Shown: in pieces, positions 17,036 to 52,109 of the stretch
How positions within the stretch are numbered: the first letter of the stretch is position 1
How the letters are laid out: the number at the start of each line of letters is the position of its first letter
NCBI RefSeq assembly: GCF_963921235.1
Contig: NC_086097.1
Span: 159,776,001-159,840,000, forward strand
Direction: 5' to 3'
DNA length: 64,000 nt
Source of the DNA: Mobula hypostoma
Lineage: Eukaryota
Translations under genes and position numbers: made by a program
The notes under the pieces: model-generated
What the model saw: the letters and a program-made list of their open reading frames with translations, nothing else
The model's database searches: none
What the model was told of the DNA's origin: nothing

Positions 17036-17400
17036 GGTGTAGCACTTTGGCTGCTTGCAGGGATATGTGCCTGGTGGGAAATTAGTAGGGAGGGATGAAT
17101 AGACTGGAGGAATCATGGAGGGAGTGACACCTGCAAAAAGCAGGCGATGGGGGGGAAGGTAAAGATGTGTTTGTTAGTAGGTTCCCTTTGAAGCTGGCAG
17201 AAGTTACGGAGAGTGATGTGTTGAATGTAAAGGCTTATGGGGTGGTAGGTGTGGGCAAGAGAAAATCTAGCTCTTTTAAGGCAGTGGAAAAATTGAGTGT
17301 GTGCAAATGACCAGGAAATGGAAGAGATTCGGGTCAGGGCAGCATTAATGGTGGAGGAAGAGATACCCTGTTCTTTGAAGAAGGGGGACATCTCTGATGG

Positions 17401-17645
17401 AGCGAGATTTGCAATTTTCCAGTCCTCTGGCACCATGCCAGAATCTAATGATTTTTGAAGGTCTAATGCCTCCACAATCTCTACTGCTACATCTTTTAGA
17501 ACCCAGGGGTGCAGTTCATCTGGTGCAGGCGATTTATGCACCCTTAGGTCTTTCAGCTTTTTAAGCACCTTCTCTCTTGTAACTGCACCCACTTCTCTTC
17601 TCTGGCACACTGCTAGTATCTTCCACAGTGAAGACTGATGCACAG
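17401..17645 (-). mobile_element. Internal CR1 ORF2 fragment nested in the old PLE
   Basis: LKKLKDLRVHKSPAPDELHPWVLKDVAVEIVEAL...SLDSGMVPEDWKIAN. Confidence 0.85.
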
Positions 17646-18515
17646 TAAGAGGAAAGCTTTATCTTGGGAACAAATGCAGCAGAGACAAAGGAGCTGAGAA
17701 AAGGCATTCGTGTTTTTACAGGAAACTGGGAAAAGTTATAATCAAGATAGTCATGGGAACCAGTATATAAGATTTATAAAAGATGTTAGTAATCAGTTTG
17801 TTTCCAGACATAGAGACAGAGATTGTGAAAGGGAAGAGAGAAATGTCAGAAATAGACCAAGTGATCTTAAGGGCAGGGAATAAATTGGATGCAAAGTTGA
17901 TGAAATTGACAAGCTCAACAGGGATGCATGAAGTCATTAATGTAGCATAGGACGATTTGGGGAGCATTGCCAGGAAAGGCTTGGAACATGGACTGATCTA
18001 TATAGCCATCAAAAAGGCAGGCTTTGCTGGAGTTTATGAGGGTACCGATAGCTATCCCATGAGATTAGGGAAAGTAGGAGGAGCCAATTAAGAAATTGTT
18101 TAAGGTGAGGACAAGTTCGGCTAGATAGAGGAAAGTGGTGGTGGAGGGGAACTATTTGAGTCTTTTCTTAAAAAATAAGCGGAGAGCTTTAATGCCCTCT
18201 TGATGGGCGAAGAGATGCATATGGACTCGACATCCATGGTGAAAGTGAGGCAATCAGGGCCATGGAATTGAAAGTTGTTGAGGAGACCATGAGTGTCCCG
18301 AATTTAGGTGGTTAGGGACTGAACCAAGGGGGATAGAATGGAGCTAATCTATGTAGACACGAGTTCAACGGGGCAGGAGTAGGTAGAGACAATGGGCCTA
18401 TCTAGATAGTCAGGTTTGTGGATCTTGGGTAGGAGGTAGAAGTGAGCAATGAGCAATGGGAACTACAGTATGAGTTCCATGACAGTGGATGGGAGTTCTC
18501 TCACATTGATGTGTA

Positions 18516-24704: not shown

Positions 24705-26945
24705 AAAACACGTGGAGAACAGAAGGATGACAAGAATGAAGGTGGGGCCACTAAAGGATAAAGAAGGCAACATGTTCTTGGAGGTGGAGGAGATTGGGGA
24801 GGTCCTAAATGAATACTTTGCTTCAGTATTCACAAGTGAAAAGGATCTTGATAGGGTGAGGCTGAAATAGAACAGACCTGTGTGTTGGACAATGTGGAGA
24901 TTAAGGAAGAAGAAGTGTTGGATCTTCTTAAAAACATCAAGATTGATAAGTCCCCAGGGCTGGATGTTATATACCCCAGGTTGCTGTGGGAAGTGAGAGA
25001 AGAGATTGCTGTAGCAGTAGCTATGATCTTTGAATTGTCTTTGGCTGTAGGGAAGGTGTCGGAAGTTCCCTTGTTTAAAAAAGGTAATAGGGAGAATCCT
25101 GGAAACTATAGACCAGTGAGTCTTATGTTGGTGGTCTACAAACTATTGGAATGGATTCTTAAGAGTAGGATCTACGAGCACTTGGAGAACTACAGTCTAC
25201 TCAAGGATAGTCAACATGGCTTTGTGAAGGGAAGGTCCAGCCTCACGAGCCTAATTGAGTTTTTTGAAGAGGTAACAACAGAAATTGATGAGGGTGGGGC
25301 GGTAGTTGTGGTCTACATGGATCTTAGCAAGGCACTTGACAAGGTCCCCCACAAGAGATTCATCCAGAAAGTCATGAGGAATGGGATCAGTGAAACCTTG
25401 GCTGTTTGGATAAAAAATTGGCCTACAGGAAGAAAGCAGAGAGTAGCAGTGGAAGGAAAGTATTCTGCCTGGAGGTTGGTGACTAGTGGAGTGCCGCAAG
25501 GATCTGTCTTGGGACCCCTGCTCTTTGTGATACAAAGATTGGAGGAGTTGTGGAAGGAGCTGTAGGTTGTCAAAGTTTACAAGAGGATATCGACAGGATG
25601 CAGAGTTGGGCAGAAAAGTGGCAGATGGAGTTCAATCCGGATAAGTGTGAGGTGATGCATTTTGGAAGAACAAACCAGAAGGCTGAGTGCAGGATTAATG
25701 GTCGGTTACTTAAGAGTGTGGATGAACGGAGGGACCTTGTGGTTCAAATCCATACATCCCCCAAGGTCGCTGCACAGGTTGATAGGATAGTTAACTGCGT
25801 AAATAAACTCCATACCTCTACATAAATGAAAAGAAACTTGCAATGCAGGGAATACTCAGGTCTGGAATTTATCATCAACAATCTTACAGTGGAGACCACA
25901 AGTTATTGATGGTTATCACAAAAAGTAAAACTAGAAAGTATTTAAAGTCTGATTCTGTCACTTTCTTGTTGAGTTTGTTTGGGAGTGAAAACATCCTGAT
26001 GAAGTGCCTGATCTGTAATTGGCTTTCATTAGATAAGATTAGGAACTGACGTTGCTTGAACAACACTAGTTGATTTTGTATCTCTGCTATTTCACACGTT
26101 AAGAGGCATTCAGAACACATAAAGCTATGGGTAGAAATAACAGTTAACAGCTGAAAAAATGGATTTGACAGACAAACACACACAAAATGCTGGAGGAACT
26201 CAGCAGTCCAAGCAGCATCTCTGGAAAAGAGAACGGTCGACATTTCAGGCCGAAACTTTTCAGCAGGACTCTTTCCATAGATGCTGCCTGGCCTGAATAG
26301 TTAAGAAGGCCTGTAAGATGCTAAGCTTTATTAATAGGGGGATTGAGTTCAAGAGTAGAGAGGTCATGTTGCAACTCTACAAATCTCTGGTGAGACCACA
26401 CTTAGAGTATTGTGTTCAGTTCTGGTCACCTCATTATAGGTAGGATGTGGAAGCTATGGAGAGTGGGCAGAGGAGATTTACCAGGACGTTGCCTGGATTG
26501 GAAAACAAGTCTTATGAAGCAAGGTTAGCAGAGCTGAGGTTTTTCTCTTTGGAGCATAGAAGGATGAGAGGGGACTTAATAGAGGTCTACAAGATTATGA
26601 GAGGCATAGATAGGGTGGATAGCCACTGTTTCCCAGGGCACGAATAGCAAACACCAGAGGGCATATGTACAAAGATAAGAGAGGGAAGTTTAGGGGAAAC
26701 ATCAGGGGTAAGTTTTTTACACAGAGAGTTGTGGGTGTCTGGAATGATTTGCCAGGGATGGTGGTGGAGGCTAAATCATTAGGAGTATTTAAGAGTCTCT
26801 TGGACAGGCACATGGATGAAAGAAAAATAGAGGGTTACGGGGTAGTGTGGGTTCAGTACGTCTTTTATAAGGAATATATGGGCCAGCACAACATTGAGGG
26901 CCGAAGGGTCTGTACTGTGCTGTAGTATTCTAGTGTCTAGTGTCT
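24705..26945 (+). mobile_element. 5'-truncated CR1 (ORF2 RT to 3' tail), interrupted at 25795-26296
   Basis: [41 protein letters not shown]; a deletion near 25528 removes the FADD motif; tail (tctagtg)n. Confidence 0.95.
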
Positions 26946-27554
26946 AATAATAAATCATGATTTGTAAGTGTAATATATTATGATCGTGTTTATCAAGAAT
27001 ATTATTTTCTTTGTCTATAGGTGGAATTTCATCTTCTAATTCAATAATGATGTTTTTCACAATGGCTTAAGAGTGTATCAAACTGTAATAACATCTTAAA
27101 ATATATAGAGGTTTTTGGTATTGTTATACTAAATTAAAACAAAACACTAAGGACTTTAGTTATAACAGATGCAAATTTAGATGGTTGTTGCTTTTCTAAG
27201 TCATTCTTCACAAACCTAGGGCAGGGACACATTATATTAACTAGGATACAAATACAGTATACTCTCAGCCATTAGGTATCCATGGGGATTGTACACATCA
27301 TCACATAAAGTGTCACATGTTCAAAGAGGACATTGCTGTTAATCAACCTATAATTACACTGTGCTTCTGCAGAAGGGCAACTGAGCCAAAAATGTCTTTT
27401 CACAATGATTTTGCATAACTCCTGAAATTAAATCCACTGTTTGAGCTTATTTTTTTGAATGTTTGCTAGTTCTGGATGTACAGGTTATCAGAAAAGCAAG
27501 AATTTACTGTAAGCTGATTTATGAAATTAACTGTTCTCCTTAATACATTAATGT

Positions 27555-28240
27555 TAAAGTTTTAGATTACGAGAACACTCAGTCCTCGTTTATTGTCATT
27601 TAGAAATGCATGCATGCATTAAGAAATGATACAATGTTCCTCCAGAGTGATATCACAGAAAAACAGGACAAAACAAAGACTGACACTGACAGAACCACAT
27701 AATTATACCATATAGTTACAGCAGTGCAAACCAATATGATAATTTGATAAAGAATAGACCATGGGCAAGGTAAAAAAAGTCTCAAAGTCCCGAGTCGATT
27801 GACTCCCGAGTCCCCGATAGCAGGCGGCAAAGGGAGGAACTCCCTGCCAGAAACCTCCAGGCATCAACAACTGCTGATGCATTGGAAGCACCCGACCACA
27901 GCCAACGCTGAGTCCGTCCATCTGAAAACTTCGAGCCTCCGACCAGCCCCTCCGATACAGTCTCCCAAGCATCATCCTCTGCCGATCACTTTTGACTTTG
28001 CCCGGCTGCCGAAACAAGCAAAGCCGAGAATTCGGGGCCTTCTCCTCCGGAGATTCTGGACCACACAGTAACAGCAGCAGCGAAGTGGGCATTTCAGAAG
28101 TTTCTCCAGATGTTCCTCCATACTCTCACATCTGCCTCCATCAAATCAGAATTGTGCACTGTCCCCTACTTGACAGATAACAGACATCACCACCGAAGTG
28201 GCCGCGCGCGCTGCGTCGCGCCGCCATCTTCTCCTCCTCC
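27555..28240 (-). mobile_element. Non-autonomous LINE-derived element (about 690 bp), CpG-rich head and Rex1-like tail
   Basis: 5' end ggaggaggagaagatggcggcgcgacgcagcgcgcgcggcc; 3' end aaatgacaataaacgagg like Rex1/Babar tails; no coding homology recognised. Confidence 0.7.
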
Positions 28241-28852
28241 TGATTCCACTCCTGTTATTGCTATCCAAAATACAAGAGTTGTGTTGCACTCTTGGTTTGA
28301 AGCTTACAAATAATGAAAAGGTTTCAAGCAGTGATGAAGCAAACCATTCTTAGGAGTGCACCCAGCCTTGACTCTCACAAATACAATTGGTAAAGTCTTA
28401 ATCAATGGTCACCCTGCAGGAAATTGGTAATCAGGGAATTTCTATTGATGGCACTACTGGAGAACAGGGTTTGAAAAACAGAACGGATTGTGTGAGATGA
28501 TCATTACCTGTCACTTAGATTGGGCAAGTAGTACCTGCCAATTTTCAATTTGATTAAATGTTAGTCAAGTGCTGCCTTAGGCTGGAGAATGCAACAATCG
28601 AGGAAGCTGTTTCATATGGGGAAGTTCCTGGCAAGCCTGTGTAAAATAGAGCAGGCTCAGGAAGGAAATAGTCAAAAAGTGCATTAGAGTTTGTTTTGGG
28701 CAGCCAGTGTTGAAATGACAAAGGTGAACAAAAGAGGAATGCTTAGAAAATTCCAGATCATATTACTAGAAACTGTTCTCCATCAGGAGGAAGAGGACAA
28801 CAAAGAGGTGGCTGTGGGAGGCTAGGGGATTGCTTTGAGTCAGTAAACTAAG

Positions 28853-31152
28853 TTCAAGGACTCATCATAGGATCTGAATGAATACATCATGGCCATATGG
28901 ACTTTATTAAAACAATCAGTGATGAGTATGCCCCACAAAACCTTTCAGTCTTCCCTAACCAGAGGTCCTAGATGAACCATGAGATCCACAATCTGCTGAG
29001 GGTCAGATCAGTGGCATTCCGTGCACGAAAAGAATGTGGAACCTTGCCTCAATAACTGTACATGCACAGTGATGAAGTGCTTCGAGAGGCTGGTGACGAA
29101 ACATGTCAACTCCTGCCTATGAAACAATTTGGATCTGCTCCAATTTGCCTAACAGCACAAAAGGTCCACCAGCAGATGATATCTCAATGTCCCTTCACCC
29201 AACTCTGGAACATCTGGACAGCAAAGATGCATACATCAGGATGATCTTTTGCAACTATAGCTCGGCATGCAATACCACCATCCCCTCAAAATTAATCATT
29301 AAGCTTCAGGTCCTAGGCCTCAATACTTCCTTGTATAGCTGGATGCTTGATTTTCTCATTTGCAGACCCCAGTCAGTTGGCAACAACATCTCCTCCACAA
29401 TGACCATCAGTACCAGTGCGCCACAAGGTTGTGTGCTTAGCCCCCTGCTCTGCTTGCGTTATACTGATGACTGTGAGGCTCAGCACAGCTCCAACACCAT
29501 ATTCAAGTTTGTGGATGACACCACTGTTGTTGGCCGAATCAAAGATGGTGACGAATCTGCATATAGGAGGAAGATTGAAAATCTGGCTGAGTGGCGCCAC
29601 AGCATCAACCTCTCACTCAGTGTCAGCAAGACCAATGAGCTGTTTATTGACTTCAGGAGGAGGAAACAGAGGGCCAAGAGCAGTCCTCACTGGGGGATCA
29701 GAGGTGGAGCGGGTTAGTAACTTTAAATTCCTCATTGTTATTACTTCAGAGAATCCATCCCGGGTCCAGTATGCAAGTGCGATTATAAAGAAAGCATGGC
29801 AACACCTCTACTTTCTTAAAAGTTTGCCAAGATCTGGCATGTCATCTAAAACATTGACAAACTTCTACAGATGTGTGGTGGAGAGTATATTGATGGTTGC
29901 ATCACAGCCTAGTATGGAAACACTAATGTCTTTGTATGGAAAGACAAAGAAGTAGTGGATACAGCTGATCCATCACGGGCAAAGCCCTCCCCTCCATTAA
30001 GCACATCTATATAGAACGCTGTCATAGGAAAGCAGCATCCATCATCAAGGACCCCATCATCCAAGCCATACAATCTTCTCACTGCTGCCATCAGGAAGAT
30101 GGTACAGGAGCCTCAGAACCCGCACCAAGAGGTTCAGGAACAGTTATTACCCCTCAACCATCATGCTCTTGAAGCAAAGGTGCTAACTTCACTGAACTTC
30201 ACTTGCCCCATCATTGAACTGTTCCCACAGCCTATAGACTCACTTTCAAGGACTCTTCATCCTCATGCTCTTGATATTTATTGTGTATTTATTTATTATA
30301 ATTTATTCTTTTTCTTGTGGTATTTGCAGTTTGTTGTTTTGTTTTTGCATCTCAGTTGTCTGTCCTGTTGGGTGCGATCTTTCATTGATCCTGTTGTGTT
30401 CAGGGTTGAGTATAGCGACATACACTTGGGAGTCCTCATGCAGGATACCCTTAAGGTTAACCTCCAGGTTGAGTCGGTGGTGAAGAAGGCGAATGCAATG
30501 TTGGCATTCATTTCTAGAGGAATACAGTATAGGAGCAGGGATGTGATGTTGAGGTTCTATAAGGCACTGGTAAGACCTCACTTGGAGTACTGTGGGCAGT
30601 TTGGGGCTCCTTATTTAAGAAGGGATGTACTGACATTGGAGAGGGTTCAGAGAAGATTCACTAGAATGATTCCAGGAATGAGAGGGTTAACATATGAGGA
30701 ACGTTTGACCGCTCTTAGACTGTGCTCCTTGGAGTTTAGAAGAATGAGGGGGGACCTCATAGAATGTTGAAAGGCATGGACAGAGTGGATGTGGCAAAGT
30801 TGTTTCCCATGCTGGGGGAGTCTAGTACGAGAGGGCATGACTTAAGGATTGAAGGGCTCCCATTCAGAACAGAGATGCGAAGAAATTTTTTAGTCAGAGG
30901 GTGGTGAATATGTGGAATTTGTTGTGGAGGCCAAGTCATTGGGTGTATTTAAGGCAGAGATTGAGTAGCGAGGGCATCAAAGGTTATGGTGAGAAGGCGG
31001 GGGAGTGGGACCTAATGGGAGAATAGATCAGCTCATGATAAAATGGCAGAGCGGACTTGATGGGCTGAATGGCCAACTTCTGCTCCTTTGTCTTATGGTC
31101 TTATGGTCTTAAAATGCACTTTGCTAATAACTTTACTTTGAACTTTGAACTT
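28853..31152 (+). mobile_element. Rex1/Babar LINE (RT to 3' tail) with a CR1 nested in its 3' UTR
   Basis: [40 protein letters not shown]; tail (actttga)n at 31133-31152. Confidence 0.9.
30427..31110 (+). mobile_element. CR1 3' part nested in Rex1
   Basis: VVKKANAMLAFISRGIQYRSRDVMLRFYKALVRPHLEYC; tail (tcttatgg)n. Confidence 0.95.
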
Positions 31153-32938: not shown

Positions 32939-34900
32939 CTTGTAGCAGTGACATTTAAAGCTGAGAAAAAAGTCATGCGTTTCTTGAACACCATTTTGCT
33001 GTATCCATTTGAATCATCCTGAACCCTAACTGCAGAAAATTTCCTTTACTCAAGTACACTGCTTAATACAATTTGTAACTCTTGACAAACTTAGTTTCTA
33101 TGTGAACAGTCCCTTTAGCACAATCTTTAAAACTGCCTGTTAAAAATGTTATTCATGACCCAAGGCATGACAGACAGCCCTGTCAAAAATGTTAAAACCT
33201 AAAAGAATTATAAGTCATTACCAAACAATGAGTGACAACTTATTAGTAATTTTGAATCATGAATTATGGAAATAAGAAAGAGTTGACAGCTTTCACTGTG
33301 GTGCTTTGTACAGACCATTTCAGTAACACCAGTAATGGACTCATTGCAGTCAGCCAAGCGAGAGGAAAAGATCTAATTTAGTGACCCCTGAGGGATATAT
33401 TTTTACAAGTAGTTTACTCCCAGCAGACAATACTGATACACAGCTTCAGTAAGAACACTGCATACCTAGCAGGATTTTAGGAACGAGAGTTCATAAAATC
33501 ACAGAAATGTATGGCAATGAAGGAAAGCCATTCAGCCTACTGTATCCAAATCAGGCAATAGTCATTGTTCGAGGAGTTGGTCCTTCTAACCACTGGTGCT
33601 GCAAACCTGTCTGATAAAATTACATTTTCTCCTTTCACCACTAATACTTTAGCTAACAATTAAAAGACATACAGAATGCTTTCTGTAGATTGGCTTCATA
33701 AGAATTTTGTAGGGCCAATTGTCTCAGTGACAAAATAACAAGACATTTAAGCCAAAGGTCTGCAAAAACCGTGAATATTTTCACCTGAACTAGCCATCAA
33801 CATAGAAGGTAAGATTGTGAGATAAATGAATTAGATATTCAAATACTCATCTTATTAGGATGAATTCTTGGGTTGTTGGCCTTAAACACTATACTTAATT
33901 TACCTAGCAAATTCAAAATGACATTGGAAAACTGTTGAATTGATAACTTTAAATCAGAGCTTTGCATATAAATCAAAAGCAACATAATGGCAATGCTGGA
34001 AATCCAAACTAAAACAGAAAATCTTGGAAATATAGAGAAGGCAGGGCAGCATTTGTGATGAGAGGGTTTATTAGAATTTTAATTGCAGAGCAAACAATTC
34101 AAATAAATGTTAATTTTTATTTATTTTTAAATACACCTTTTCCTAGTGATTAGATTAAATAATAGTTTAAGAATTTGCATTATCAATAGTTATAAAGTGA
34201 ATACTTAACTTGGTTACATAACTTTCTGATTCTCATGAAAGCATTAACACTTGGAAAATATAATAGATTAAGGGAGTCAATAAAATAATGGATTGTAATT
34301 TGATATATTTGACATAAATAACCCAGTCTTTTCCTCTTGGCCCATTTTCAAAATAAAATGGACCAAACCTTATACATATGGCTTAAAGAAATACACTAAA
34401 AACAGAAATAACATTACGCAGAGCCTCATCCTCCTTGCAGAAAAATAATTACTTTTGAAGATGCACGCATATACTGCTGACTTTGTTGTGTTAGAATCCT
34501 ACAATAGTGTTTTCTGAAATTCTGCATTTATTGTTCCATGTTTTAGTCATGTTGTTTTACACACAATATACATCTATGCCATACAGAACTGAAGCAGTGT
34601 TGAGGTCATAATTAACCATTAATGTATCTTTCTTAATTTCTCTATAAATCTGTCATAAGGGGTCTGCATTCCCCATGCTCATGAATTCAGGCATACTTAT
34701 CATATCATATTTCAATACTATGTGCAGTGGTAGTTGGATTTGCATTTTTAGCTGTTACCACTATAGAGTCCGTGTAAAATTGTTACTACATGCACCCAAC
34801 TGCAGCATCTTCCAGGGTTTAGACGTTCTAACTCTCTGGAATATGGATGGCTGGTGTGGCCGTAATAGATACAGAACCATCCTGCTAGAAAGTTTTTTTA

Positions 34901-35359
34901 GTCAGTAGGCTTATAGTAGACATCAGTGGATAAGCTGTCTCCAGAGACAGAGACAGAAAGATCTAGAAAGGGGAGGGAGGTGTCGGAAATGGACCAGGTA
35001 AACTTGAGGGCAGGGTGAAAGTTGGAGGCAAAGTTAATAAAGTCAACGAGTTCTGCACGCGTGCAGGAAGCAGCGCCAACACAGTCGTCGATGTAGCGAA
35101 GGAAAAGTGGGGGACAGATACCAGAATAGGCACGGAACATAGATTGTTCCAGAAACCCAACAAAAAGGCAGGTATAGCTAGGACCCATACGGGTGCCCAT
35201 AGCTACACCTTTAGTTTGGAGGAAGTGGGAGGAGCCAAAGGAGAAATTATTAAGAGTAAGGACTAATTTCGCTAGACAGAGCAGAGTGGTGGTAGAGGGG
35301 AACTGATTAGGTCTGGAATCCAAAAAGAAGCGTAGAGCTTTGAGACCTTCCTGATGGGG
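34901..35359 (-). pseudogene. PLE reverse transcriptase core (inverted segment, no stop codons)
   Basis: PHQEGLKALRFFLDSRPNQ...RYIDDCVG...DVYYKPTD. Confidence 0.95.
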
Positions 35360-35364
35360 GACCT

Positions 35365-36231
35365 TCTCACAGCTATCTGGACTATTCCTCTTCTCGCCCT
35401 GTCTCTTGCAAAAACGCCATCCCCTTCTCGCAATTCCTCCGTCTCCGCCGCATCTGCTCTCAGGATGAGGCTTTTCATTCTAGGACAAGGGAGATGTCTT
35501 CCGTTTTTAAAGAAAGGGGCTTCCCTTCCTCCCCTATCAACTCTGATCTTAAATGCATCTCCCCCATTTCACATACATCTGCTCTCACTCCATCCTCCCG
35601 CCACCCCACTAGGAATAGGGTTCTCCTGGTCCTCACCTACCACCCCACCAGCCTCCGGGTCCAACATATTATTCTCCGTAACTTCCACCTCCTCCAACGG
35701 GATCCCACCACTAAGCACATCTTTCCCCCCCCCCCTGCATTCCGCAGGGATCGCTCCCTACACAACTCCCTTGTCCATTCGTCCCCCCCATCCCTCCCCA
35801 CTGATCTCCCTCCTGGCACTTATCCGTGTAAGCGGAACAAGTGCTACACATGCCCTTACACTTCCTCCCTTACCACCATTCAGGGCCCCAAACAGTCCTT
35901 CCAGGTGAGGCAACACTTCACCTGTGAGTTGACTAGGGTGATATACTGCGTCCGGTGCTCCCGATGTGGCCTTTTATATATTGGCGAGACCCGACGCAGA
36001 CTGGGAGACCGCTTTGCTGAACATCTACGCTCTGTCCGCCAGAGAAAGCAGGATCTCCCAGTGGCCACACATTTTAATTCCACATCCCATTCCCATTCTG
36101 ACATGTCTATCCACGGCCTCCTCTACTGTAAAGATGAAGCCACACTCAGGTTGGAGGAACAACACCTTATATTCCGTCTGGGTAGCCTCCAACCTGATGG
36201 CATGAACATTGACTTCTCTAACTTTCGCTAG
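35365..36231 (+). pseudogene. PLE RT thumb, Cys linker and GIY-YIG endonuclease (no stop codons)
   Basis: The frame is open from SHSYLDYSSS at 35365 into the listed 245-aa ORF, ending QPDGMNIDFSNFR. Confidence 0.95.
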
Positions 36232-36524
36232 GCCCCACCTCCCCCTCGTACCCCATCTGTTACTTATTTTTATGCACACATTCTTTCTCTCACTCTCCTT
36301 TTTCTCCCTCTGTCCCTCTGAATATACCTCTTGCCCATCCTCTGGGTTCCCCCCTCCTTGTCTTTCTTCCCGGACCTCCTGTCCCATGATCCTCTCGTAT
36401 CCCCTTTTGCCTATCACCTGTCCAGCTCTTGGCTCTATCCCTCCCCCTCCTGTCTTCTCCTATCATTTTGGATCTTCCTCCCCCCCTCCAACTTTCAAAT
36501 CCCTTACTCACTCTTCCTTCAGTT

Positions 36525-36560
36525 AGTCCTGACGAAAGGTCTCGGCCTGAAACGTCGACT
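36525..36560 (+). ncRNA. Minimal type I hammerhead ribozyme motif in the PLE 3' region
   Basis: AGTC-CTGACGA-A-AGG-tctcgg-CCT-GAAAC-GTC-GACT: helix I AGTC/GACT, core CUGANGA and GAAA, helix II AGG/CCT, palindromic ACGT helix III, GUC cleavage triplet. Confidence 0.8.
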
Positions 36561-36629
36561 GTACCTCTTCCTAGAGATGCTGCTTGGCCTGCTGCGTTCA
36601 CCAGCAACTTTGATGTGTGCTGCTAGTTA

Positions 36630-39600
36630 AATATTGGGTGCCAAAAGCTGAGTATTTGAAGAGCATGTGAATAGAACCTGTGTGTTCAACCAGAGATATC
36701 ATCTGGTGTTTTGCTTTGTGGTCTGATCTTGATCCAGTTTCATTCCATATCTTGATCCAAGACTCGGACACTCCAGTACTTGGGTCCAAAGCATCCTCGT
36801 TAAGGACTCTAGTCACAGTATGATTGAACAAGTATGAACCCAGTGGGATATCAGAGTCTTTCATCTGCTGTGACCAGCCACAGCAAGAAGATTTCTAGAC
36901 ACAGCCTGAATATTTTATGACCTCCAAGTAGCTGTTTGCCAAGTTTTGCAAGGAGGAAGTCAGAGTCGTTTGGGAGAGCCAGTCAGTCACTGTGCGGAAC
37001 CAGTACATCTTTCAATCCTGATGAGATCTGATGGTGACCAGGCTCTTGCTGCAGCTTTCTCAATCAATGCTCATTAGAGTTCAAACTCCACCATCCCAGT
37101 TCCCTTTGGAGTGTGGAAAGGTGGCCTTCATTATCTCTCTTCTGACTGGGAGAGCCCTGGCATGAGCCAATGCGCTTTGGGAAAGAAGGTTGGAGGCTTG
37201 TTTGGATTCAGAGGATTTCATGGCTGCCATGAGGAAGGTGTTCCACCACCCTGCCAGAGCCATCTGAGCTTCAGACCGTCTGATGAAGTTTCAATAGGGC
37301 AGACGGTCAGCGGTCAACTATGCCATCGAGTTTCAGACATTGGCCCAAGAGAGTGGCAGGAACAGGAAGGCCTTGGCCACTGTATACCGCCATGGACTCC
37401 TAGATGAACTGAAGGTTGCTCTCGGCTGGGAGAGCCAGCAGAGGAGTTAGAGGTTCTGATTGACCAATCCATTCGTCTCCATAATCATCAGGCAGAGCGT
37501 AAGTGGGACTACATCAAGAGGTCAAAGAGGGTTAGCCCGAGCCTGGCCTTAATACATTGTAGTTCCACTCCCTGATCTCAGATGACGACCAACCAGTTTC
37601 CTGCTCAGAATCCTGTCGAGACCATGCAAATTGGCCACATAAGAATCTCTGCCAATGAGAGGTTCCAGCGTTGGAGTCAATGTTGCTTCTCTTGCTGTGG
37701 GGAAGCAGGTCACCAGCAGGCTGATGTCCTGAAGCTGCAGCCATCAGGGGAACTGTTAAGACCATCCAGTTTTGAGAGGACTGTGATGGTAGCAGTGACT
37801 ATTCCCAACCTCATGGATTTTGATATGAAGCTTAGAGCAGACATCTCCTGGGGTTTGAACCAACGAGAGGTGAATGCCTTTTTGGGCTCTGAGGCAGCTG
37901 AAAATTTCCTGGACATGGGAACTGCCCATCAGCTCAACGTGGGATGCAGGAGCTGAGCCAGCCCATGCCCGCAATTGTCTTGGATGGCCGTCCACTTGGT
38001 TCCAGACAGATCTAGCAACAGACGTTGGTCTTGTGGATGAGGATAATACAAAGGACATTAGTTTCTATACCATTCAATCTCCTCAGAGACCCCTGGTCCT
38101 CGGGCACCTTTGACAGTCCCAACATAACCCTTCTATGAACTGGATCATTGCATGGTCCCGTCACTGCAAGAATGTATGTTTTCGGCTTGGTGTTCCAACA
38201 CCCAGACTCTCCTAAGTCCAGCAGCTGATGAGGGGCAGTCTTCAGTTCGGGGTAACCTGGAGTCTTTAGGAAACCCAGATCTGCCTTCAAGGGCACACAA
38301 GCTGGCACCAGCCAACAGACCCGCGTGATTTCCAACCCTGTTCTGTCAGGGGTGCACTGGAACTAGTTCTCCAGTTCAGGAGCATAACAGGGAGGTGCCC
38401 AGGCAGTCAGGAACTCTAGCAGCTAAGCCATAGGGCTCCAGTTGCCAGGGGAAGGCTCCAAAACAGAGAACCTTGGATCCTAGTCCCAGGAGCAGAAGGA
38501 CAATTTGTTGTGCTGCACGACCGATGTTTGAGAATATGGATGAGTGTTTGGACTGTGATTTGACCTTTATTTTCACTAAAGACTCTTGAGAACCTATGGA
38601 GGAGACTCTGGGGTCTGCCAAATCATCACCTCAACCTAAGGAGCCTCAGGAGTCATCCTTGGAGGAAGATTTGGGGGTAATTGCAGCAACCAAGCCAGTA
38701 GAAAACCATTCTATCTATAAGGATCTACAAGGATTTGGAAGAAGTCTTCAGCAAGGGAAAGTCCTTGACTCTTCCACTGCACTGACCCTACAACTGTGCT
38801 ATATATCTACTGCCTGATAATTGTCTTCCACGGGGTCAAATATATACACTCTCAGGCCCAAAGAGAAGCACAATGGAGGAGTATATAAAGGAGGCTCTTG
38901 TCCTGGGGTTCATTTGGCCCTCCACCTCGCTAGTCAGTGCTGGCTTCTTCTTCGTACAGAAAAAGGATGGGAGCCTGCGGCCATGCAATGATTATAGAGC
39001 ACTGAATTGCACAATGATCAAGAATTGTTACTCTCTTCAACTCCTGAATACTGTCTTTGAGATTTTCCAAGGAGCAAGAGTATTCTCAAAGCTAGACTTG
39101 CGGAGTGCATACAGTATGGTTCGCATAAAGGAGGGTGATGAGTGGAAGATGGCATTCAACACACCAACAAGACACTATGAGTACCTGGTCATGCACTTCA
39201 GCCTTGTGAATGTGCCAGCACTTTTCCAGACCTTTTAAATGACGTGCTCCAGGATGCTCTCTATAAGTATGCCTTCGTGCAACATCCTAATTTTCTTGAA
39301 GTCCATGGAGGAACATGTCACTTACATCAGAGATATCCTAAAGAGGCTTCTTGATCATGGACTTTACATCAAGCTGGAGAAGTCCATATTTCAGGATAGG
39401 CCTCTCCAGAGTTGAGGAAATTAGCATACAAATTCATTGGACCCTCAATACTCTCAGGAAAGTAAACCTGGTAGCTCTCATTTTGCAGCTCCCTAATACC
39501 CTCAAGATCAACCCCACTTTCCACGTTTCCAAATTAAAACCTGTGAACACCAGCCCTTTAGCCCCACCACCATCAGTTCCGTGACCACCCAGCTTGTCGA

Positions 39601-41789: not shown

Positions 41790-43430
41790 AGTTCCCTGCC
41801 CCGACTGTTTCCTTTTCACTATGGATGTCCAGTCCCTGTACCCTTCTACCCTCCATCATGAAGTCTTTAAATTTCTTCAAAAGATCCAACCAGATCTCCT
41901 ACACCACTACCCTCCTCCATCCGGAAGAACCGATCCTCACCCTCAACAATTTTTCCTTCAGCTCCTCCCACTTACTCCAAATTCAAAAGGTAGCCATGGC
42001 CATCCACTTGTGCCCTAGCATGCCTGCATTTTCATTGGCTATGTAGAACAGTCCATGTTCCAAGCCTTCCCCAGGAATGCTCTGCAACTCTTTGCCTCCA
42101 ACTTCCATCCTGTCCTTAAATTCACTTGACCCATTTCTGACACCTCTCTCCCCTTCCTCAGTTTCTCTGTTTCCATCTCTGGAGACAAACTGTCTACTGA
42201 TATATTTTAGAAACCTACTGATTCCCACAGCTATCTTGACCATACTTCTCCCTGCCCTGTCTCCTGTAAAAAGGCTATTCTCTTTTCTCAGTTCCTTCAT
42301 CTTTGCTGCATCTATTCCCAGAATGAGCCTTTCATTTCCAGGACATCAAATATGTCCTCCTTCTTTAAAGAATGGGGATTTCCTTTTTCCACAACTAATA
42401 CTGTTCTTATCCTCATCTCTTCCATTTCCCAGGCATCTATGCTTCCCATCGCCTTAACAAGGACAGAGTTCCTCTTGTCTTTCCCTAGCACTTCATGAGC
42501 CCCAGATCCAACACATCATTCTCCTCATCTTCTGCCATCTTCAACAGGATCCTACCACCAAACCCAGCTTTATCTCCCCACACTCTCTGCTTTCTGCAAG
42601 CGTCACTCCTTCCGTGATTCACTTGTCCATTTGATCCCCACCACTCTAATTTCCCACCTGTCACATACTCCTGCATGCAACAGAAATGCTACACCTGCCC
42701 ATTCACCTCCTCTGTTGCCTCCATTCAGGGCCCCAAATAGCCCTTCCAGGTGAAACAACATTTCACTTGTGAGTCTGTGTGCCATATCTGGCACTCCTGA
42801 TATGGCCTCTTCTATGTTGGTGATCGCTGATATAAATTGGGGGACTGCTTTGTTGAGAACCTCCACTCCATGTGTCAAAATTGGAATTTCCCAGTAGCCA
42901 ACCATTTTAATTCCTGTACCGATATGTTGGTCAATGGCGTTCTCTTCTGCCTTGATGAGGCCACTTTCAGAGTGGATGTGCAACACCTCATATTCTGTGT
43001 AGGTAGCCTCCAACCTCATGACATGAACATCAATTTCTCCCTCCAGAAATAGTTCTCCCTTCCCTCTTCCCTCTTCTTTTATTTCCTATTCTGGCCTCAT
43101 TACTCTTCTCCTCATCTGCCTATCACCTCTCTCAGTGCCCCACCTTCTTCCCTTTCTTCCATAGTTCACTCTCCTCTCCTATTAGATTCCTTCTTCTCTA
43201 GCCCTTTACCTTTAACACCTACCTATCATCTTCCAGCTATTCCTACTTCCCCCCGCCCACTTTTTTATTCTGGCATCTTCCCCTGCCTATCCAATCCTGA
43301 AGAAGCGTCTCAGTCCAAAATGTTGCCTGTTTATTCATTTCCATAGATGCTGCTGGATCTTCCGAGTTCCTCCAATGTTCTGTGTGTATTTCTCTGGATT
43401 TCCAGCACGCGCAGAATCTGTTGTGTTTAT
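41790..43430 (+). mobile_element. Older Penelope-like element (RT, GIY-YIG, tail), frameshifted
   Basis: FTMDVQSLY, ILTLNNFSFSSSHLLQ, GDCFVENLHS..PVANHFNS; degenerate hammerhead at about 43293-43330. Confidence 0.9.
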
Positions 43431-44099
43431 GAGAAAACAAGTTGGAAAATTGTGTAATTACATTTGTGTGAACGTCTGAATCAGACGAAAAGGACAAAAT
43501 AAATCACTATATGTTTTGGAGCTTATGCCCACTCAAAGTCAATTCTTGTGGCTTGTCTCTCCTGTAGTAGGTTGTTAGCTGTAAAACTTTCCTTTTGGAA
43601 GACTGAAATATGCCCACTGCCATATTTTCTGTCTGCACATGGATCCCTGTACTCATATTGAAACATGGTTGATTTTTTTTCTTGGAGAGGGCAGAACTAT
43701 GATGACACACAACAGCGACTCCTTCGAGCTCATCTGCGGAAATAGCATAATTTCTACCTTTGATGTCTGTTTCTTTCGTTATCAGTGTGTGTGCGGTTCT
43801 GTCGATGACCTTGACCTGGAGTTACACTCAGACTTCAATTCTTTTTTCTGGTGGGACACGCTCCTGGGGGCTCACGTCCAGCCACTTTTCTAAATCCCAG
43901 GGATGCAGCCGAGAAGACGAGTGCATCTTTGGGGTTCCAAGGCTTCACGGCCCTGGGGATGAGCTGTCTCTAAGCTGGTGCTGCTGAATGAAGTGTCATG
44001 GGAGAAAATGGAACATCAAGAACAATGGATCGGTTGTGGGGGAGGGGCTCTGTACTGGCTGAATCGTGTGCTTGCTCTTTCTCATTGGTGGGGGAGAGT

Positions 44100-44927: not shown

Positions 44928-45361
44928 CAGATTACCTTTCTTATGAACTTCCAAAGTTTATTTTGCAGTTATATTTCCTATTGGTACATGCTAGATATCA
45001 CTATCAGCAAACTGAAAGCAAGAAGAATTTTTTTTTATTTTCCATAGTTTTTGTCTTCTCTCTTTTCCAGCTAGTTTATTACACATGTAATCATTAGACT
45101 GAGCGAGGGTAAAATAATACATCATGGCACAATTATTTTAAATAGGTTGAACAGATGAATGTCAAAAATCTAGATATTACATTGCAGTCCGGATATAAAT
45201 CCACTTGATTGATAAGCCCACCCACCACCCGAAACATTCATTTTGATGCTGTCTATGTCATGATTTATGCTATCATGTTTAATGAGATGAGAACTAGAGG
45301 ACACAGCCTCAAGATTCAAGATTTGGGATGAAGATGAGGAGAAACTGCTTTTTTCCAGACA

Positions 45362-46542
45362 TCTGCTCTCAGGATGAGGCTTTTCATTCTAGGACGAGGT
45401 AGTTGTCTTCATTTTTTAAAGAAAGGGGCTTCCCTTCCTCCACTATCAACTCTGCTCTTAAACGCATCTCCCCCATTTCACGTACATCTGCTCTCACTCC
45501 ATCCTCCCACCACCCCACTAGGAATAGGGTTCCCCTGGTCCTCACCTACCACCCCACCAGCCTCCGGGTCCAACATATTATTCTCCGTAACTTCCGCCAC
45601 CTCCAACGGGATCCCACCACTAAGCACATCTTTCCCTCCCCCCCCCTCTCTGCATTCCGCAGGGATCGCTCCCTACACAACTCCCTTGTCCATTCGTCCC
45701 CCCCATCCCTCCCCACTGATCTCCCTCCTGGCACTTATCCGTGTAAGCGGAACAAGTGCTACACATGCCCTTACACTTCCTCCCTTACCACCATTCAGGG
45801 CCCCAAACAGTCCTTCCAGGTGAGGCATCACTTCACCTGTGAGTCGACTGGGGTGATATACTGCGTCCGGTGCTCCCGATGTGGCCTTTTATATATTGGT
45901 GAGACCCGACGCAGACTGGGAGACCGCTTTGCTGAACATCTACGCTCTGTCCGCCAGAGAAAGCAGGATCTCCCAGTGGCCACACATTTTAATTCCACAT
46001 CCCATTCCCATTCTGACATGTCTATCCACGGCCTCCTCTACTGTAAAGATGAAGCCACACTCAGGTTGGAGGAACAACACCTTATATTCCGTCTGGGTAG
46101 CCTCCAACCTGATGGCATGAACGTTGACTTCTCTAACTTCCGCTAGGCCCCACCTCCCCCTCATACCCCAGCTGTTACTCATTTTTATGCACACATTCTT
46201 TCTCTCACTCTCCTTTTTCTCCCTCTGTCCCTCTGAATATACCTCTTGCCCATCCTCTGGGTCACCCCCCCCTCCGTCTTTCTTCCCGGACCTCCTGTCC
46301 CATGATCCTCTCGTATCTCCTTTTGCCTATCACCTGTCCAGCTCTCGGCTCTATCCCTCCCCCTCCTGTCTTCTCCTATCATTTTGCATCTCCCCCTCCC
46401 TCTCCAGCTTTCAAATCCCTTACTCACTCTTCCTTCAGTTAGTCCTGACGAAGGGTCTCGGCCTGAAACGTCGACTGCGCCTCTTCCTATAGATGCTGCT
46501 TGGCCTGCTGCGTTCACCAGCAACTTTGATGTATGTTGCTTG
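45362..46542 (+). mobile_element. Young 5'-truncated Neptune-type Penelope-like element
   Basis: Stop-free ORF 45403-46146 (GIY-YIG), nearly identical to 35494-36231; 12-bp TSD tttttccagaca at 45350-45361 and 46543-46554. Confidence 0.95.
46441..46476 (+). ncRNA. Minimal type I hammerhead ribozyme motif in the PLE 3' region
   Basis: AGTC-CTGACGA-A-GGG-tctcgg-CCT-GAAAC-GTC-GACT with all core positions intact. Confidence 0.8.
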
Positions 46543-47319
46543 TTTTTCCAGACAGTAGTGAATTTATGAAATTCTCTGATCAGGAAAGCAATGGAGGTTA
46601 CCTTTACATATTTAAGACACAGTTAGAATTTTGCATAGCAGGGTAATTAAGGGTTATGGTAAGAAGGCATGCAGATGGAACTGAGTTCATAGCCAGATCA
46701 GCAATGATTATGAATGGCAGATCAAGTTTGATGGGCCAGATGGCCGACATCTTCTCCTCATTCTTATGTTCTTATGACCAAAACCCACTGCCGTTACTTA
46801 CCAAGACTACTCTGACAAAATCTACCTCTAAGTGTAAGCATTAGCATGTCACTTTCAAGTCACACACAGTTTTGCTGTGGAAACACTTTGTTAATCAAAC
46901 CCTGGAACCTACACTATATGTACAATAAGTTAACCATCATTGGCAAACAAAGATGATCTTCCCATTATCAATGCCAATAAATGTTGACTTCTTAGTAAAT
47001 TAATTTAAAGAAGTTCAGGGTTTGCCATTGGAGGCCTTTATTGTTGACATATCTTAATGCAATTCTCTTCAAGCCATACAGGGTTGCAACAGAAATTTGC
47101 ATTTCTCTTACATGCCTTCTATCTATCTATCTGTTTGCTTAACCATCTGTCTAAGCATTTGTCTATTTATCTGTCTTTCTGTTTCTGTTTGTTTTCCTGT
47201 TAGACAGTCAGAAGCAAAGATTACAACCAGAAGAACCTAACCATATAACGTTTATGAATTGAAGAGGATGTGTGATAACATTGTTTTTTGCTCTTTCTTA
47301 TTTATGATGCTCTTTATAG

Positions 47320-49380
47320 TGAGGAAGGTGGTCTTAGGCCACAGAATGATTTTGGTTGGCTGAGCATCAGCAGATAACATTTAATTCTGATGAAAGTGAG
47401 GTGGTGAATTAAGAAAAGGAGTTTGATTATGCAGGTTAGAGCCCTAGGGAGCAATGCAGATTAGAGAAACAAGGCTATAGATAACCAAAGATGGCAGCAA
47501 AAGTAGATAAGCTGGTGAAGAGACTTATGATATGCTTGCCTTCTTCAGCCAGGATACAGAAATCACAGAGGTCATGGTAACATTATAAACCTTGGTTTGG
47601 CTACATCTAGGGTATGTGTGTGTTACTGGTAATCACATTCTAAGGAGAAAATGATTACACTGCATGCAGAGAAGATTTACCAGAATGTTGACTGTGATTG
47701 AATAGTTAGGCTGACCTCAGTGGTTGGGAAGATGTTGGAGTCAGTCATTAAGAATGAGATTATGGAGTGGTTGGTGACACAGGACAAGATAGGACAAAGT
47801 CAGCGTGGTTTCCTTGAGGGAAAATCTTGCCTGACAAACCTGTTGGAATTCTTTAAGGAGATTTCAAGTAGGATAGATAAAAGGGGTGTAGTGGATGTTG
47901 TACATTTGGACTTGCAGAAGGCCTTTGATAAGGTGACACACATAAGACTACAGAGCCAAGCTAAGAGCCCATGGTATTACAGGAAAGTTTCTAGCATGGT
48001 TAGATCATGGGCTGATTGGTAGGAGGCAGCCTTTTCTGGTTATCTACCAGTGGCTAGTGGTGTACTACAGGGGTCAGTGTTGGGATCACATCTTTTTATG
48101 CTGTATATCAGTGATTAAGATGATGAATTGGATGGCTTTGTTGTCAAGTTTGTTGCTGATACAAAGATTGGTGGAGGGGCAGGTAGTGTTGAGGAAACAG
48201 ATAGGCTGCAAAAGGACTTAGACAGATTAGGAGAATGGGCAAGAGTGTGGCAACTGAAATCCAATGTGGGAAAATGCATGATCATACACTGTGATAATAG
48301 AAATAAATATGCAGACTACTTTCTAAATGTGGAGAAAATCCAAAAATCTGAGATGCAAAGGGTCTTGGAAGTCCTTGTACAGAACACCCTAAAGATTACT
48401 TTGCAGGTAGAGTCGGGGGAGAGGAGGACAAATGCAATGTTAGCATTCACTTCAAGAGGTCTAGAATACAGGAGCAGGGATGTGGTGCTGAGGCTTTATA
48501 AGGCACTGGTGAGGTCTCTCCTTGAGGATTGTGAACAGTTTTGGGCCCTTCATCGAAGAAAAGATCTGCTGGCATTGGATGGGGTTGAGAGGAGGTTCAC
48601 AAGGATGATTCTGGGAATGAAAGGGTTATCTTGCAAGGAACATATGATAGCTTTGTGTCTGTACTCGCTGGAATTTAGAAGGATGAGGGGGATTCTCATT
48701 GAAACCTTTCGAATGTCAAAAGGCCTAGACAGAGTAGACGTGGAAAGGATGTTTCCCATGGTGGGAGAGTCTAGGACAAGAGGGCACAGCCTCAGGATAG
48801 AGGGACATCCATTTAAAAGATGCAATGAAATTTATTTAGCCAGAGGGTGGTGAATTTGTGGAATTTATTACCACAGGAGGCCGTGGAGGCCAGGTCACTG
48901 GGTGTATTTAAGGCAGATATAGACAGATTCTTGATTGGACGTGGCATCAACAGTTATGGAGAGAAGGCCGGGGAGTGAGGCTGAGGAGGGGAAATAAGAA
49001 TCAGCCATGATTGAATGGTGGAGCAGACTCGATAGGCCAAATAGCCTATTTCTACTCCTATGTCTTATGGTCTTATATCTATTATTAGGAGAATCTAAAT
49101 AGGCTGTTTTGTTTTCTTTGGAGCAGAGGAGACTGAGGGAGGTTGTGGAGTAGGGGTTAATCAAGTTGCACAAATAATGAAGGGTATAGGTACTGTTGAT
49201 AATGGTAATATCTAAAACCAAAGGACCAAGATTTAATCTAAGCAGTGAAAGGGTTAAAGGGGATATGAGGAAAAAAAAACACCAAATTGGTGATAACGAA
49301 GTACAACATACTGCCTGAGAAGACGGTGAAGGTAAGTACTCTCACGTTGAAATAGTACCTGAGCAAACACTTGAATCACA
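47320..49380 (+). mobile_element. CR1 (47710-49080, RT to tail) nested in an older CR1 3' part
   Basis: SQRGFLEGKSCLTNLLEFF, KFVADTKIGG, LRLYKALVR; tail tcttatggtctt; older pieces at 47320-47705 and 49085-49380. Confidence 0.9.
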
Positions 49381-50534
49381 AAATTAAATTTTTCCTTTTC
49401 CTTCTCTCGCTGTATTTTCAAAATTAATTTAATAAATTTCATATTATTTGCAGATGTGAATGCTAGACATTATATATTATCTAGACTGTAAAAAAATTGT
49501 ATTTACTTAAATCTATTTGATAGCATTGACATGTTACAGCAGATTTGATACAATATCAGACACCTTATAAATAACGTTACCGTTCTGATGTTGTCTGTTC
49601 AACTACAATGTTAGAAGATCAAAATTTAATTTATTGCTTGATAAGTACACTTTAATCTCTTCATTATTCCAACACATATAGCTAGAATGTACACCTCTTG
49701 CATTTTGAGCTGTTTAAAACTGCTGTACCTGCTTTTCTAAAGATTCAATTAATAACTGAATAACCATGTTTAATTTTATCAATGCACCATTGGCAAACCC
49801 AGCTCTTCTAGATAAGACTTCAAGTCAAGGACCCCTTTTCTTTTCCAGATAAGTTATATCTGAGGAAGGCAGAATGTTACACCCTCAGCCAAGATTATAA
49901 GACAAATTATACAGTATGTCACCCTTTCATTGCCGTTTATTGCAGCTACCATGCCAGCACAGCATTTTGGATTTTCATTGTACTTCATCAGTTGCAAGTT
50001 GACTTAAGTTGCCCTGAAGTCATGAAACATACCGCAAAAATTCATTTTGGAGCTCATTTCTTCTCTTACTCCTATCATCATCTTCTTTTATATGAACCTC
50101 AATGTCTATTTCCCTCCCTTCTTAATTTTCCTTCTTAATTTTTAGTCTTATGTCTGGGCACTCACAATGTGTTCCTTCTTTGTAGAAAGGTGGAAGGGTA
50201 CCTTTAAGAATTGGTTTATGTCAACCTTGACAGGTTGTTGTATCAAGCCGCTGCGGTTTTAATTGACATCTACAGGTTTCCAAAGGATAATCTGTTAATA
50301 ACTCAATTTACTTCTGAGATCCAACTCACAAAGGGACATGTGGAAACTACACTTTTCATCTTTCTTTATCTCTTACTTTTTCCAGTCTTTGTTTCTTCAT
50401 TTATTAATTTCTTCCTAACTATCTTCCTTCTTTTCTTGACTGTTTCCTGCCTTCCTAAATATATATTCATTGAAAAAAATTAATATTTGAGCATCCTACT
50501 GAAAGTAGCAATGGTGGTGCTTCTTCAATTCACT

Positions 50535-52065
50535 TAAATTCAGCAGTCTGAGGTACTCATCTGCTTCAGGAAGGCTTCAATTATACTGGCACCCAAAAAG
50601 AATGTGGTGACCTAACTGAATGACTATTGTCCAGTAGCACTTAGATCCACAGTGATGAATTGTTTTGAGAGGTTGGTGATGAAACATATCAACTCCTGAC
50701 TGACTAAGAAGCAACTTAGATCCACTGCAACTTCCCTTCTGAAGCAACAGGTCCACAACAGATGTCATCTCATTGGGTCTCACTCAAAATCTGGACTATC
50801 TGGACAGCAAAGATGTCTACATTAGGATGTTCCTTATCGACTACAACTCAGCATTCAATACCATCATTCCCTCAGAACTAATCAATGATCTCCTAGCCCT
50901 TGACTTCAATGCCTCCTTGTGCAATTGGATCCTCTATTTCCTCATTTCCCAGTCACTTTGGATTGGCAACATCTCCTGCATGATCGCCATCAGCACAGTT
51001 GCACCACAAGGCTGTGTGCTTAGCCCCCACTCTACTCATTTTACACTTATGACTGTGTAGCTAAGCACAGCTCCAATGCCATATTCAATTTTGCTGATGA
51101 CACTACTGTCATACTCCAGATCAAATGTGGCGATGAATCAGATATAACAGAAAGACTGAAAATCTGGCTGAGTGGTGGCAAATCAACAATCTCTTACTCA
51201 AGGTCAGCAAGACCAATGAATTGATTATTGACTTCAGGAGAAGGAAACCAGAGATCCATGAGCCAGCCTTCATCAGAAGATCAGAAGTGAAGAGGGTCAG
51301 CAACTTTAAGTTCCTCGGTGTGATTATTTCAGAAGACCTGTCCTAGACCGAGCACATAAGTACAATTATGAAGAAAGCACGGCAGTGCCTCTACTTCATT
51401 AGGAGAGTGTGAAGATTCAGCATGACGCCTAAAACTTTGACAAATATCTATAGATGTGTAGTAGAGAGTATATTGACTGGCTGCATCACAGCCTGGTATG
51501 GAAACACTAAAGCCGTTGAACAAAAAAATCCTACAAAAGTAGTGGATTCAGCCAAATCCATCATGGGTAAAGCCCTCCCCACCATTGTGTACATCTACAT
51601 GAAACACTGTTGCAGGAAGGTAGCATTCATCATCAGGGACCCCCACCATCCAGGACATGCTCTCTTCTCGCTGCTGCCATCAGGAAGATTGTATAGGAGC
51701 CTCGGAACTACACCACCAACTACCCCTCAACTGTCAGGCTCTTGAATCAAAGGGGATAACTTCACTTGTCCATCATTGAAATGCTTCCACAACCAATGGA
51801 CTCACTTTCAAGGACTCATTATCTCATGTTCTCGATATTTATTGCTTACTTATTTAATATTATTATTTCTTCCTTTCTGTATTTGCACAGTTTGTTGTCA
51901 TTTGCACACTGGTTGAATGCTGAAGCTGGTGTGGTCTTTCATTGATTCTGTTATGGCTATTATTCTATAGATTTATTGAGTATGCTCACAAGAAAATGAA
52001 TCTCAGGGTTGTATATGGTGATATACAGTATATGAACTTTGATAATAAATTTACTTTGAACTTTG
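50535..52065 (+). mobile_element. Rex1/Babar LINE (RT to 3' tail)
   Basis: [33 protein letters not shown], tttgctgatgac (FADD), CVVESILTGCITAWYG; tail actttgaactttg. Confidence 0.9.
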
Positions 52066-52109
52066 TGTTGAATAAAATTTTTCAAATATCTTTGGCTATC
52101 ATCAGGGGC

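Follow-up and report, generated by a model that had tools for sequence, protein, structure and literature searches.

The window analysed here, a 64,000-nucleotide (nt) stretch of the Mobula hypostoma genome (contig NC_086097.1, positions 159,776,001 to 159,840,000 of the forward strand), harbors a 5'-truncated Penelope-like element (PLE) whose first 461 nt are inverted, an arrangement that we interpret as a probable case of twin priming. The insert, 1,731 nt in total, lies between two plus-strand copies of the 7-bp word CTGCTAG at 34882-34888 and 36620-36626 (window coordinates throughout), which constitute its target-site duplication (TSD). From left to right it comprises: a 12-nt filler (34889-34900, plus strand), whose last base may be templated if the two pieces of the element overlap by 1 nt; a 461-nt piece on the minus strand, running from 35361 down to 34901; a 3-nt filler (35362-35364, read on the plus strand from the assembly); and a 1,255-nt piece on the plus strand (35365-36619). 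The ratio of forward to inverted length is thus 2.7.

By translation and homologue alignment, the inverted piece encodes the core of a reverse transcriptase (RT), including its YIDD motif, and ends in VYYKPTD at its outer edge. The forward piece opens with SHSYLDY, and its coding part (35365-36231) supplies the end of the RT with the thumb, a cysteine linker of the form CX4CX2C (35827-35853), the GIY-YIG endonuclease domain with a CCHH pattern (35938-36159, from Pfam PF01541 and residues read in the alignment) and the stop codon. The remainder (36232-36619) is an untranslated or pseudo-long-terminal-repeat (pseudo-LTR) region ending in the family tail, which is held in common with the copies at 45.4-46.5 kb and 10.1-10.6 kb of the window. 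When a script flips the inverted piece and sets it ahead of the forward piece, a single reading frame of 441 codons results, free of stops up to the one at 36229-36231.

The domain order, one open reading frame (ORF) in which the RT precedes a GIY-YIG endonuclease at the C terminus, is that of the endonuclease-bearing PLEs. Pfam matches are weak (RVT_1 with an E-value of 0.05 for the inverted piece, below the cut-off; PF01541 with an E-value of 2.8e-4 and 21.6 bits against a cut-off of 22.6), and homologous proteins match strongly, with a best E-value of 1e-103. The closest named proteins are from sharks, with 61% identity over the forward piece and 71% between the inverted piece and the shark protein P0031 (tblastn); a cartilaginous-fish host is accordingly likely. 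In the alignment with homologues the CCHH pattern comprises CSRC between the IY and YIG words and histidine residues downstream, and the linker reads CKRNKCYTC, agreeing with the CX2-5CxxC motif of the Neptune/Nematis PLEs, for which both signatures have been defined (PMC8557442; here and below, statements on cited papers refer to the portions accessible to us). Judged by its domain order, the CCHH pattern and the linker, the element is classed as a C-terminal-endonuclease PLE of the Neptune/Nematis type. Family copies end at differing points of one tail and carry short TSDs, of 7 and 12 bp. The present copy begins within the RT, at about residue 450 of an 889-residue homologue; its 5' half is gone and therefore it is not able to move on its own. 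The family is very abundant: 290,178 family contigs were placed in one sequencing run (X1, below), and taken together their depth exceeds that of the flanks by a factor of about 10^5, a figure that is not a copy number.

A flush break inside a single insertion

Beyond the assembly, the evidence comes from read-derived contigs of four among 23 listed public runs, two of organism A (X1 and X2) and two of one sample of organism B (X5 and X7). Organism A may be the assembly's own sample, and each organism is represented by one individual. An earlier note on this DNA had held that VYYKPTD (34901, minus strand) and SHSYLDY (35365, plus strand) are contiguous and that the inversion is base-precise. 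Several observations bear this contiguity out, along with the 441-codon frame. An older paralogue at 42090-43039 (69% identity) aligns across the break with no gap, and the region is likewise gapless in all 38 of the 38 homologous proteins. Further, among the joints listed for the family contigs, the opposite-strand joint 34901/35365 recurs in all four runs with 10-16 contigs each; the joint 34900/35366, in which one letter fits both sides, also occurs in all four (7-14 contigs each); and a minor joint, 34899/35367, appears in three of the four with 1-2 contigs. These counts rest on 15 of 1,381 joints, so that no frequency can be derived from them. At 34900, the loose ends of contigs carry the letters with which the forward piece begins. 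From the paralogue, the proteins and the family joints it follows that the break is flush within 0-1 nt. The two pieces abut with no gap and an overlap of 0 or 1 nt; the claim of base precision thus stands as to the lack of a gap, and gives way to an ambiguity of 1 nt (34901/35365 or 34900/35366). The inner filler of about 3 nt is found as claimed.

The outer boundaries are documented by organism A: its contigs extend past the left junction as far as 34927 and 34926, they also take in the right junction, starting at 36598, and at both places they show 0 differences from the window. They enter the element in antisense on the left, for 26-27 letters, and in sense on the right, for 22 letters, which places them below the threshold of 31 letters into the element that defined a bridged junction. 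Contigs of both X1 and X2 span the 12-nt filler, also with 0 differences. In organism B, one contig per run joins 34200/34208-34881 directly to 36620-36860 with no letters between; its flanks are about 2% divergent from the window, with 18 changed letters among 923 in X5 and 21 among 915 in X7, as in a closely related species. This empty site holds a single CTGCTAG and hence confirms the 7-bp TSD. The right CTGCTAG had also been considered as part of the family tail on account of its resemblance; this candidate was rejected, as the empty site shows it to be target DNA. The organism A contigs and the empty site together indicate that the two ends of the insert face opposite ways, and the clean empty site in a relative, with one TSD around both pieces, points to a single insertion. 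The left junction is unbroken in the organism A contigs, which suggests that the insertion is homozygous there.

Thus, the empty site that the earlier note proposed to seek in a sister species was recovered, clean and not as an uninverted copy. The assembly artefact that would have undone the inversion did not materialize, the read-derived contigs upholding both outer junctions and the inner one being given by the assembly. The note had described the TSD as set apart from the element by about 12 nt of filler; this holds on the left (34889-34900), the filler being missing from the empty site, and on the right the element meets the TSD directly.

Two further observations concern the structure and age of the copy. 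The inverted arm is not duplicated: self-comparison gave no internal inverted match, and the longest inverted repeat within 34700-36800 is 21 nt at 71% identity. Therefore the insert is neither the usual inverted pseudo-LTR of PLEs, as the note had already remarked, nor a snap-back product. As to age, the copy carries at least 18 differences from at least 90% of the family depth in X1 and X5 (counted among 31 rows of the comparison, which has 387 further rows): 7 in the inverted piece (461 nt), 9 in the forward ORF (867 nt) and 2 in the untranslated region. Of the coding differences in those rows, 13 of 16 are non-synonymous. This amounts to neutral decay of about 1-1.5%, to a like degree in the two halves, and fits an insertion that took place near the split of organisms A and B or shortly after it. 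Such similar and low private divergence in both halves is as expected from one young template.

Proposed twin priming and its rivals

We propose, with a probability of roughly 0.7, that the insertion arose by twin priming, in which the two nicked target strands both primed on one RNA, and that host end-joining followed. The layout is that of twin priming: within a single TSD, an inverted piece from the 5' side and a forward piece from the 3' side adjoin with an overlap of 0-1 nt. Briefly, we advance the following course of events. The GIY-YIG endonuclease would nick the two target strands 7 nt apart, the spacing recorded in the TSD, leaving two 3' overhangs. The bottom-strand end, at what would be the first priming site (the right TSD copy), probably aided by a match of 5 out of 7 bases, would prime in the 3' tail of the RNA and give rise to the 1,255-nt forward part. 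The top-strand end, to which the left TSD copy would correspond as the second primer, would gain some 11-12 extra bases, prime internally on the same RNA and copy 461 nt toward its 5' end. The first complementary DNA (cDNA) would halt at the duplex of the second cDNA with the RNA, a plausible cause of the abutment observed. Alternatively, the first cDNA might stop and leave an RNA end, to which the second primer would jump, an order of events that would also yield an abutment of 0-1 nt. Host end-joining would then link the two cDNA ends, leaving the 3-nt filler, and the resulting copy, devoid of its 5' half and dead on arrival, would have undergone neutral decay since. The flush abutment would thus follow from both cDNAs having been copied from one RNA, with no need for coincidence; this common template is itself read from the abutment.

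Some support for pairing at the first priming site comes from the targets. In the focal copy, 5 of the 7 bases of the bottom overhang agree in register with the family tail (chance 0.013 with uniform bases, the tail being taken from one paralogue). In a young copy at 45362-46542, the 12-bp TSD (45350-45361 and 46543-46554) matches the tail in register at 8 of 12 positions (chance 0.003, uniform bases). Hence, it seems that either base pairing assists first-strand priming or the nuclease favors targets that resemble the tail. The young copy with its TSD (45350-46554) is in itself a plain 5' truncation of the same family, 95.9% identical to the focal copy.

The reference point for this layout is L1, whose 5'-inverted, twin-primed insertions were reportedly described by Ostertag and Kazazian in 2001. 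Like the 5'-inverted L1 copies of human and chimpanzee, the present insert has one TSD, an inverted 5' piece just inside the left TSD copy, a 5' truncation and pieces that adjoin in the consensus. At 2.7, its length ratio nearly equals the mean of 2.6 for L1 (10.1101/2024.08.27.596794), and its flush junction falls within a class of about 18% of L1 inversions (300 of 1,703, computed from the figures of the same source); precision alone is therefore not unusual. Unlike L1, the element combines a Penelope-like RT with a GIY-YIG nuclease and lacks a poly(A), priming instead in a tail. Two further differences count against the proposal. L1 TSDs measure 10-20 bp, short ones being infrequent at L1 5' inversions (PMC2912911), and it has been argued that short overhangs do not suffice for a second priming (PMC4245944), whereas the TSD here is only 7 bp. 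Microhomology at the outer junction marks 577 of 605 L1 5' inversions (28 of 605 are without it), with extra 5' bases being rare (PMC2912911), whereas here a 12-nt filler stands in place of direct microhomology. The earlier note's reading of an L1 twin-priming signature thus holds for the layout, the single TSD and the adjoining pieces, and not for these two atypical features.

Other points are mixed or weigh against twin priming. In its favor, the outer break and the TSD are separated by 12 nt, and next to the break the RNA agrees with the top-strand TSD in 5 of 7 in-register positions, a score also reached at 25 of 1,710 sites; this match, however, was not directly extended, given that 12 nt intervene, and, with several primers and registers having been tried, may be chance. 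The end of the TSD together with the first 4 filler bases forms an 8-mer that recurs 62 nt into the inverted piece (34963), possibly a trace of aborted priming. The recurrence is not significant, being equalled in 290 and 488 of 5,000 null trials and in 810 of 5,000 for the whole element (6-16%). Nor do other matches point to an origin of the outer filler, the best in the element and flanks (6-7 nt) being at chance level. Its T-run might conceivably have been copied from an oligo(A) tail of a cut RNA. With its flanks, the inner filler repeats a 7-mer at 35344-35350, 16 nt upstream, in the manner of a templated repair patch; 4 of the 64 possible 3-nt fillers match as long, so this is suggestive only and not significant by itself. 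Among the 32 matches listed, with 489,817 more outside the listing, no contig crosses the inner junction (35361/35365), the junction being read from the assembly. Finally, this is one locus only, and the available in vitro data on two-strand extension concern the Poseidon clade, other than that of the focal element.

The short TSD and the outer filler, being atypical of L1 twin priming, keep a repair-driven flip in contention, and this is the main rival, if an unlikely one: a double-stranded, 5'-truncated cDNA would have broken once during integration, with its 5' end not yet attached, and its 461-bp fragment been rejoined in reverse, with fillers at both joints. Such a flip accounts for the flush break, for both fillers and for an outer junction devoid of direct microhomology; extra 5' bases are frequent in fish insertions of long interspersed nuclear elements (PMC4245944), and the inner filler looks like a locally templated patch (the 4 in 64 above). 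However, it requires an additional double-strand break and a reversed re-ligation with the 7-nt overhang staying intact; if the element's own staggered cut made the break, a duplication of 7-12 nt is predicted where 0-1 nt is observed; and extension of both strands has already been demonstrated for a PLE enzyme. A later inversion, with a plain 5'-truncated copy first inserted and then flipped in the course of ordinary double-strand break repair, strikes us as distinctly improbable. The private divergence of about 1% leaves time for it, and only one individual each of organisms A and B was sampled; but one of its breaks must then have struck no more than 12 nt from the insert edge, the 25 longest of 41 inverted-repeat pairs include none that flanks the segment, and no uninverted allele appears among the matches listed, the organism A contigs running through the left junction.

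Three further explanations carry very little weight. Two RNAs could have been used, one primed per nick, as proposed for head-to-head Penelope pairs, with the second primed internally. Inverted, 5'-truncated companions are indeed common in PLEs (PMC8557442), but nothing would tie the second start to the first stop, and we estimate agreement within 1 nt at about 1 in 1,000 for an element of several kb; we regard this as very improbable. There is a comparably slight chance that the inversion is real and its inner junction mis-assembled, the exact abutment being an artefact. The family is extremely repetitive and the inner junction lacks a crossing contig, as noted above; yet the outer break, one side of the abutment, is supported by contigs, and an assembler would have no reason to place a joint with a 3-nt filler at the exact complementary position. 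Least probable of all is that the cDNA snapped back, as happens in R2 insertions, or primed itself, as the model for inverted pseudo-LTRs has it. Snap-back does yield junctions of flank to antisense sequence (PMC11371274), and self-priming has been put forward to explain PLE inverted repeats (PMC3846280), but a fold-back would duplicate the inverted arm in the forward part. The observed arm contradicts this, unless an exact deletion of the arm followed.

Relation to other Penelope-like elements

Inverted companions are routine in PLEs, but they repeat the 3' end of the element (PMC8557442). The insert resembles Pen2a_Av of Adineta vaga in belonging to the same class, in its outward-pointing antisense 5' piece and in its one TSD of similar length (8-10 bp in Pen2a_Av; PMC3846280). 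In contrast to arms of the Pen2a_Av type, which repeat the 3' end and often show a palindrome at the turn, the arm here is unique mid-ORF sequence, unduplicated and free of a palindrome. The nearest precedent that we found is a pair of Pen3 copies from the same rotifer source, in which the halves of a PLE ORF stand in opposite orientation (PMC3846280). These differ in that their halves overlap and lie on detached contigs with little flank, perhaps as collapsed assemblies according to that paper's discussion; its accessible text gives no TSD, empty site or twin-priming reading for them.

On the biochemical side, the purified protein of PAc, a Poseidon element of Anolis carolinensis, cleaves and extends both strands in vitro, starting internally and without homology (PMC11167929). 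The needed chemistry therefore exists in a related clade, and the idea in the earlier note that a GIY-YIG element can prime from both nicked strands finds support in what had already been demonstrated for this Penelope protein. PAc and the focal element have in common the GIY-YIG nuclease, the internal start on the RNA and a variable tail end, two-strand cleavage and extension being established for PAc. PAc differs in lacking the cysteine linker and in an initiation not homologous to the cut DNA, as against the tail matches of 5/7 and 8/12 here; inversions are not described in the accessible part of that paper (PMC11167929). In L1, by comparison, one cell-culture study obtained 5' inversions only with L1 in human cells, bar one Nimb-2 insert (PMC4245944). 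A literature search, which did not reach the subscription literature and hence older Penelope papers that may report such copies, yielded no paper that connects twin priming with Penelope or GIY-YIG elements; the accessible portions of PMC6007223, PMC3681739 and 10.64898/2026.07.22.740005 contain nothing on a non-duplicated, flush PLE inversion. Hence, we consider it probable that the locus presents a known mechanism in an element class for which we found no report of it, its geometry being the twin-priming layout, though not with every hallmark of L1.

How PLEs form their tandem and inverted insertions has been described as unresolved (PMC8557442), the mechanism proposed in print for the inverted arm being self-priming on antisense RNA (PMC3846280). 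An inversion that is flush and non-duplicated, within one verified TSD, does not derive from such a fold-back. The locus instead points to a second nick that primes reverse transcription in vivo, in line with the two-strand extension seen in vitro. If this is true, twin priming, so far known mostly from L1 in mammalian cells, extends to a telomerase-related RT with a different nuclease. A wider conjecture, which we offer tentatively and regard as somewhat doubtful, is that priming by both strands on sense RNA may be a general route of PLE integration. The inverted pseudo-LTR would then result from twin priming at a second tail (provided by a tandem transcript's upstream pseudo-LTR or by another RNA) rather than from antisense self-priming, and the focal locus would be the flush, single-template form of a class recurring in cartilaginous-fish genomes. 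Were this so, the very many copies in those genomes would let the mechanism be read statistically; given the abundance of the family, the question can be settled by counting.

Further copies and neighboring repeats

Other RT- or endonuclease-bearing PLE remnants of the window (3.7-4.4, 10.1-10.6, 15.0-18.5, 41.8-43.4 and 45.4-46.5 kb) showed no switch of orientation by blastn and tblastn. Further flanked copies were sought in metagenome contigs, where a protein search gave 239 pattern matches with 0 confirmed and a search by a 21-nt pattern gave 0, as well as in viral contigs (0) and prokaryotic genomes (0). The remnants are of several ages and include those at 41790-43440, 3740-4430 (minus strand) and 10140-10592 (minus strand). 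An old, decayed PLE at 15040-18510 (minus strand) has its endonuclease part (to about 15800) set off by some 1.2 kb of unrelated sequence from its RT part (from 17034), in the same orientation. Scraps of the PLE tail lie near 12540-12610, 26175-26270 and 59596-60037, and the 3' ends of the remnants stop at different points of one tail.

Within the focal element, the pseudo-LTR region contains at 36529-36553 words, seen by eye, that resemble the core of a hammerhead, a motif of the pseudo-LTRs of endonuclease-bearing PLEs; Rfam gave no family at the gathering score in the window and no hammerhead at E-values up to 10 near the tail. Close to it, an opposite-strand joint at 36498/36566 occurs in both organism A runs, with one contig each at a depth of 79-104, and in none of the organism B joints listed; it is probably a short fold-back or an inverted copy elsewhere in the genome. 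The family contigs also show recurrent deletions of about 94-100 nt at 35875-35976, just ahead of the GIY-YIG domain. To the right of the insertion, at about 37300-39240, lie decayed frames presumably derived from the gag, protease and RT of a Ty3/Gypsy-type LTR retrotransposon; two short frames scanned within this region gave no Pfam match. Lastly, the segments 24770-31100 and 48360-56010 have several dispersed repeats of 0.6-1.4 kb in common, at 68-74% identity, which likely represent another retroelement family.

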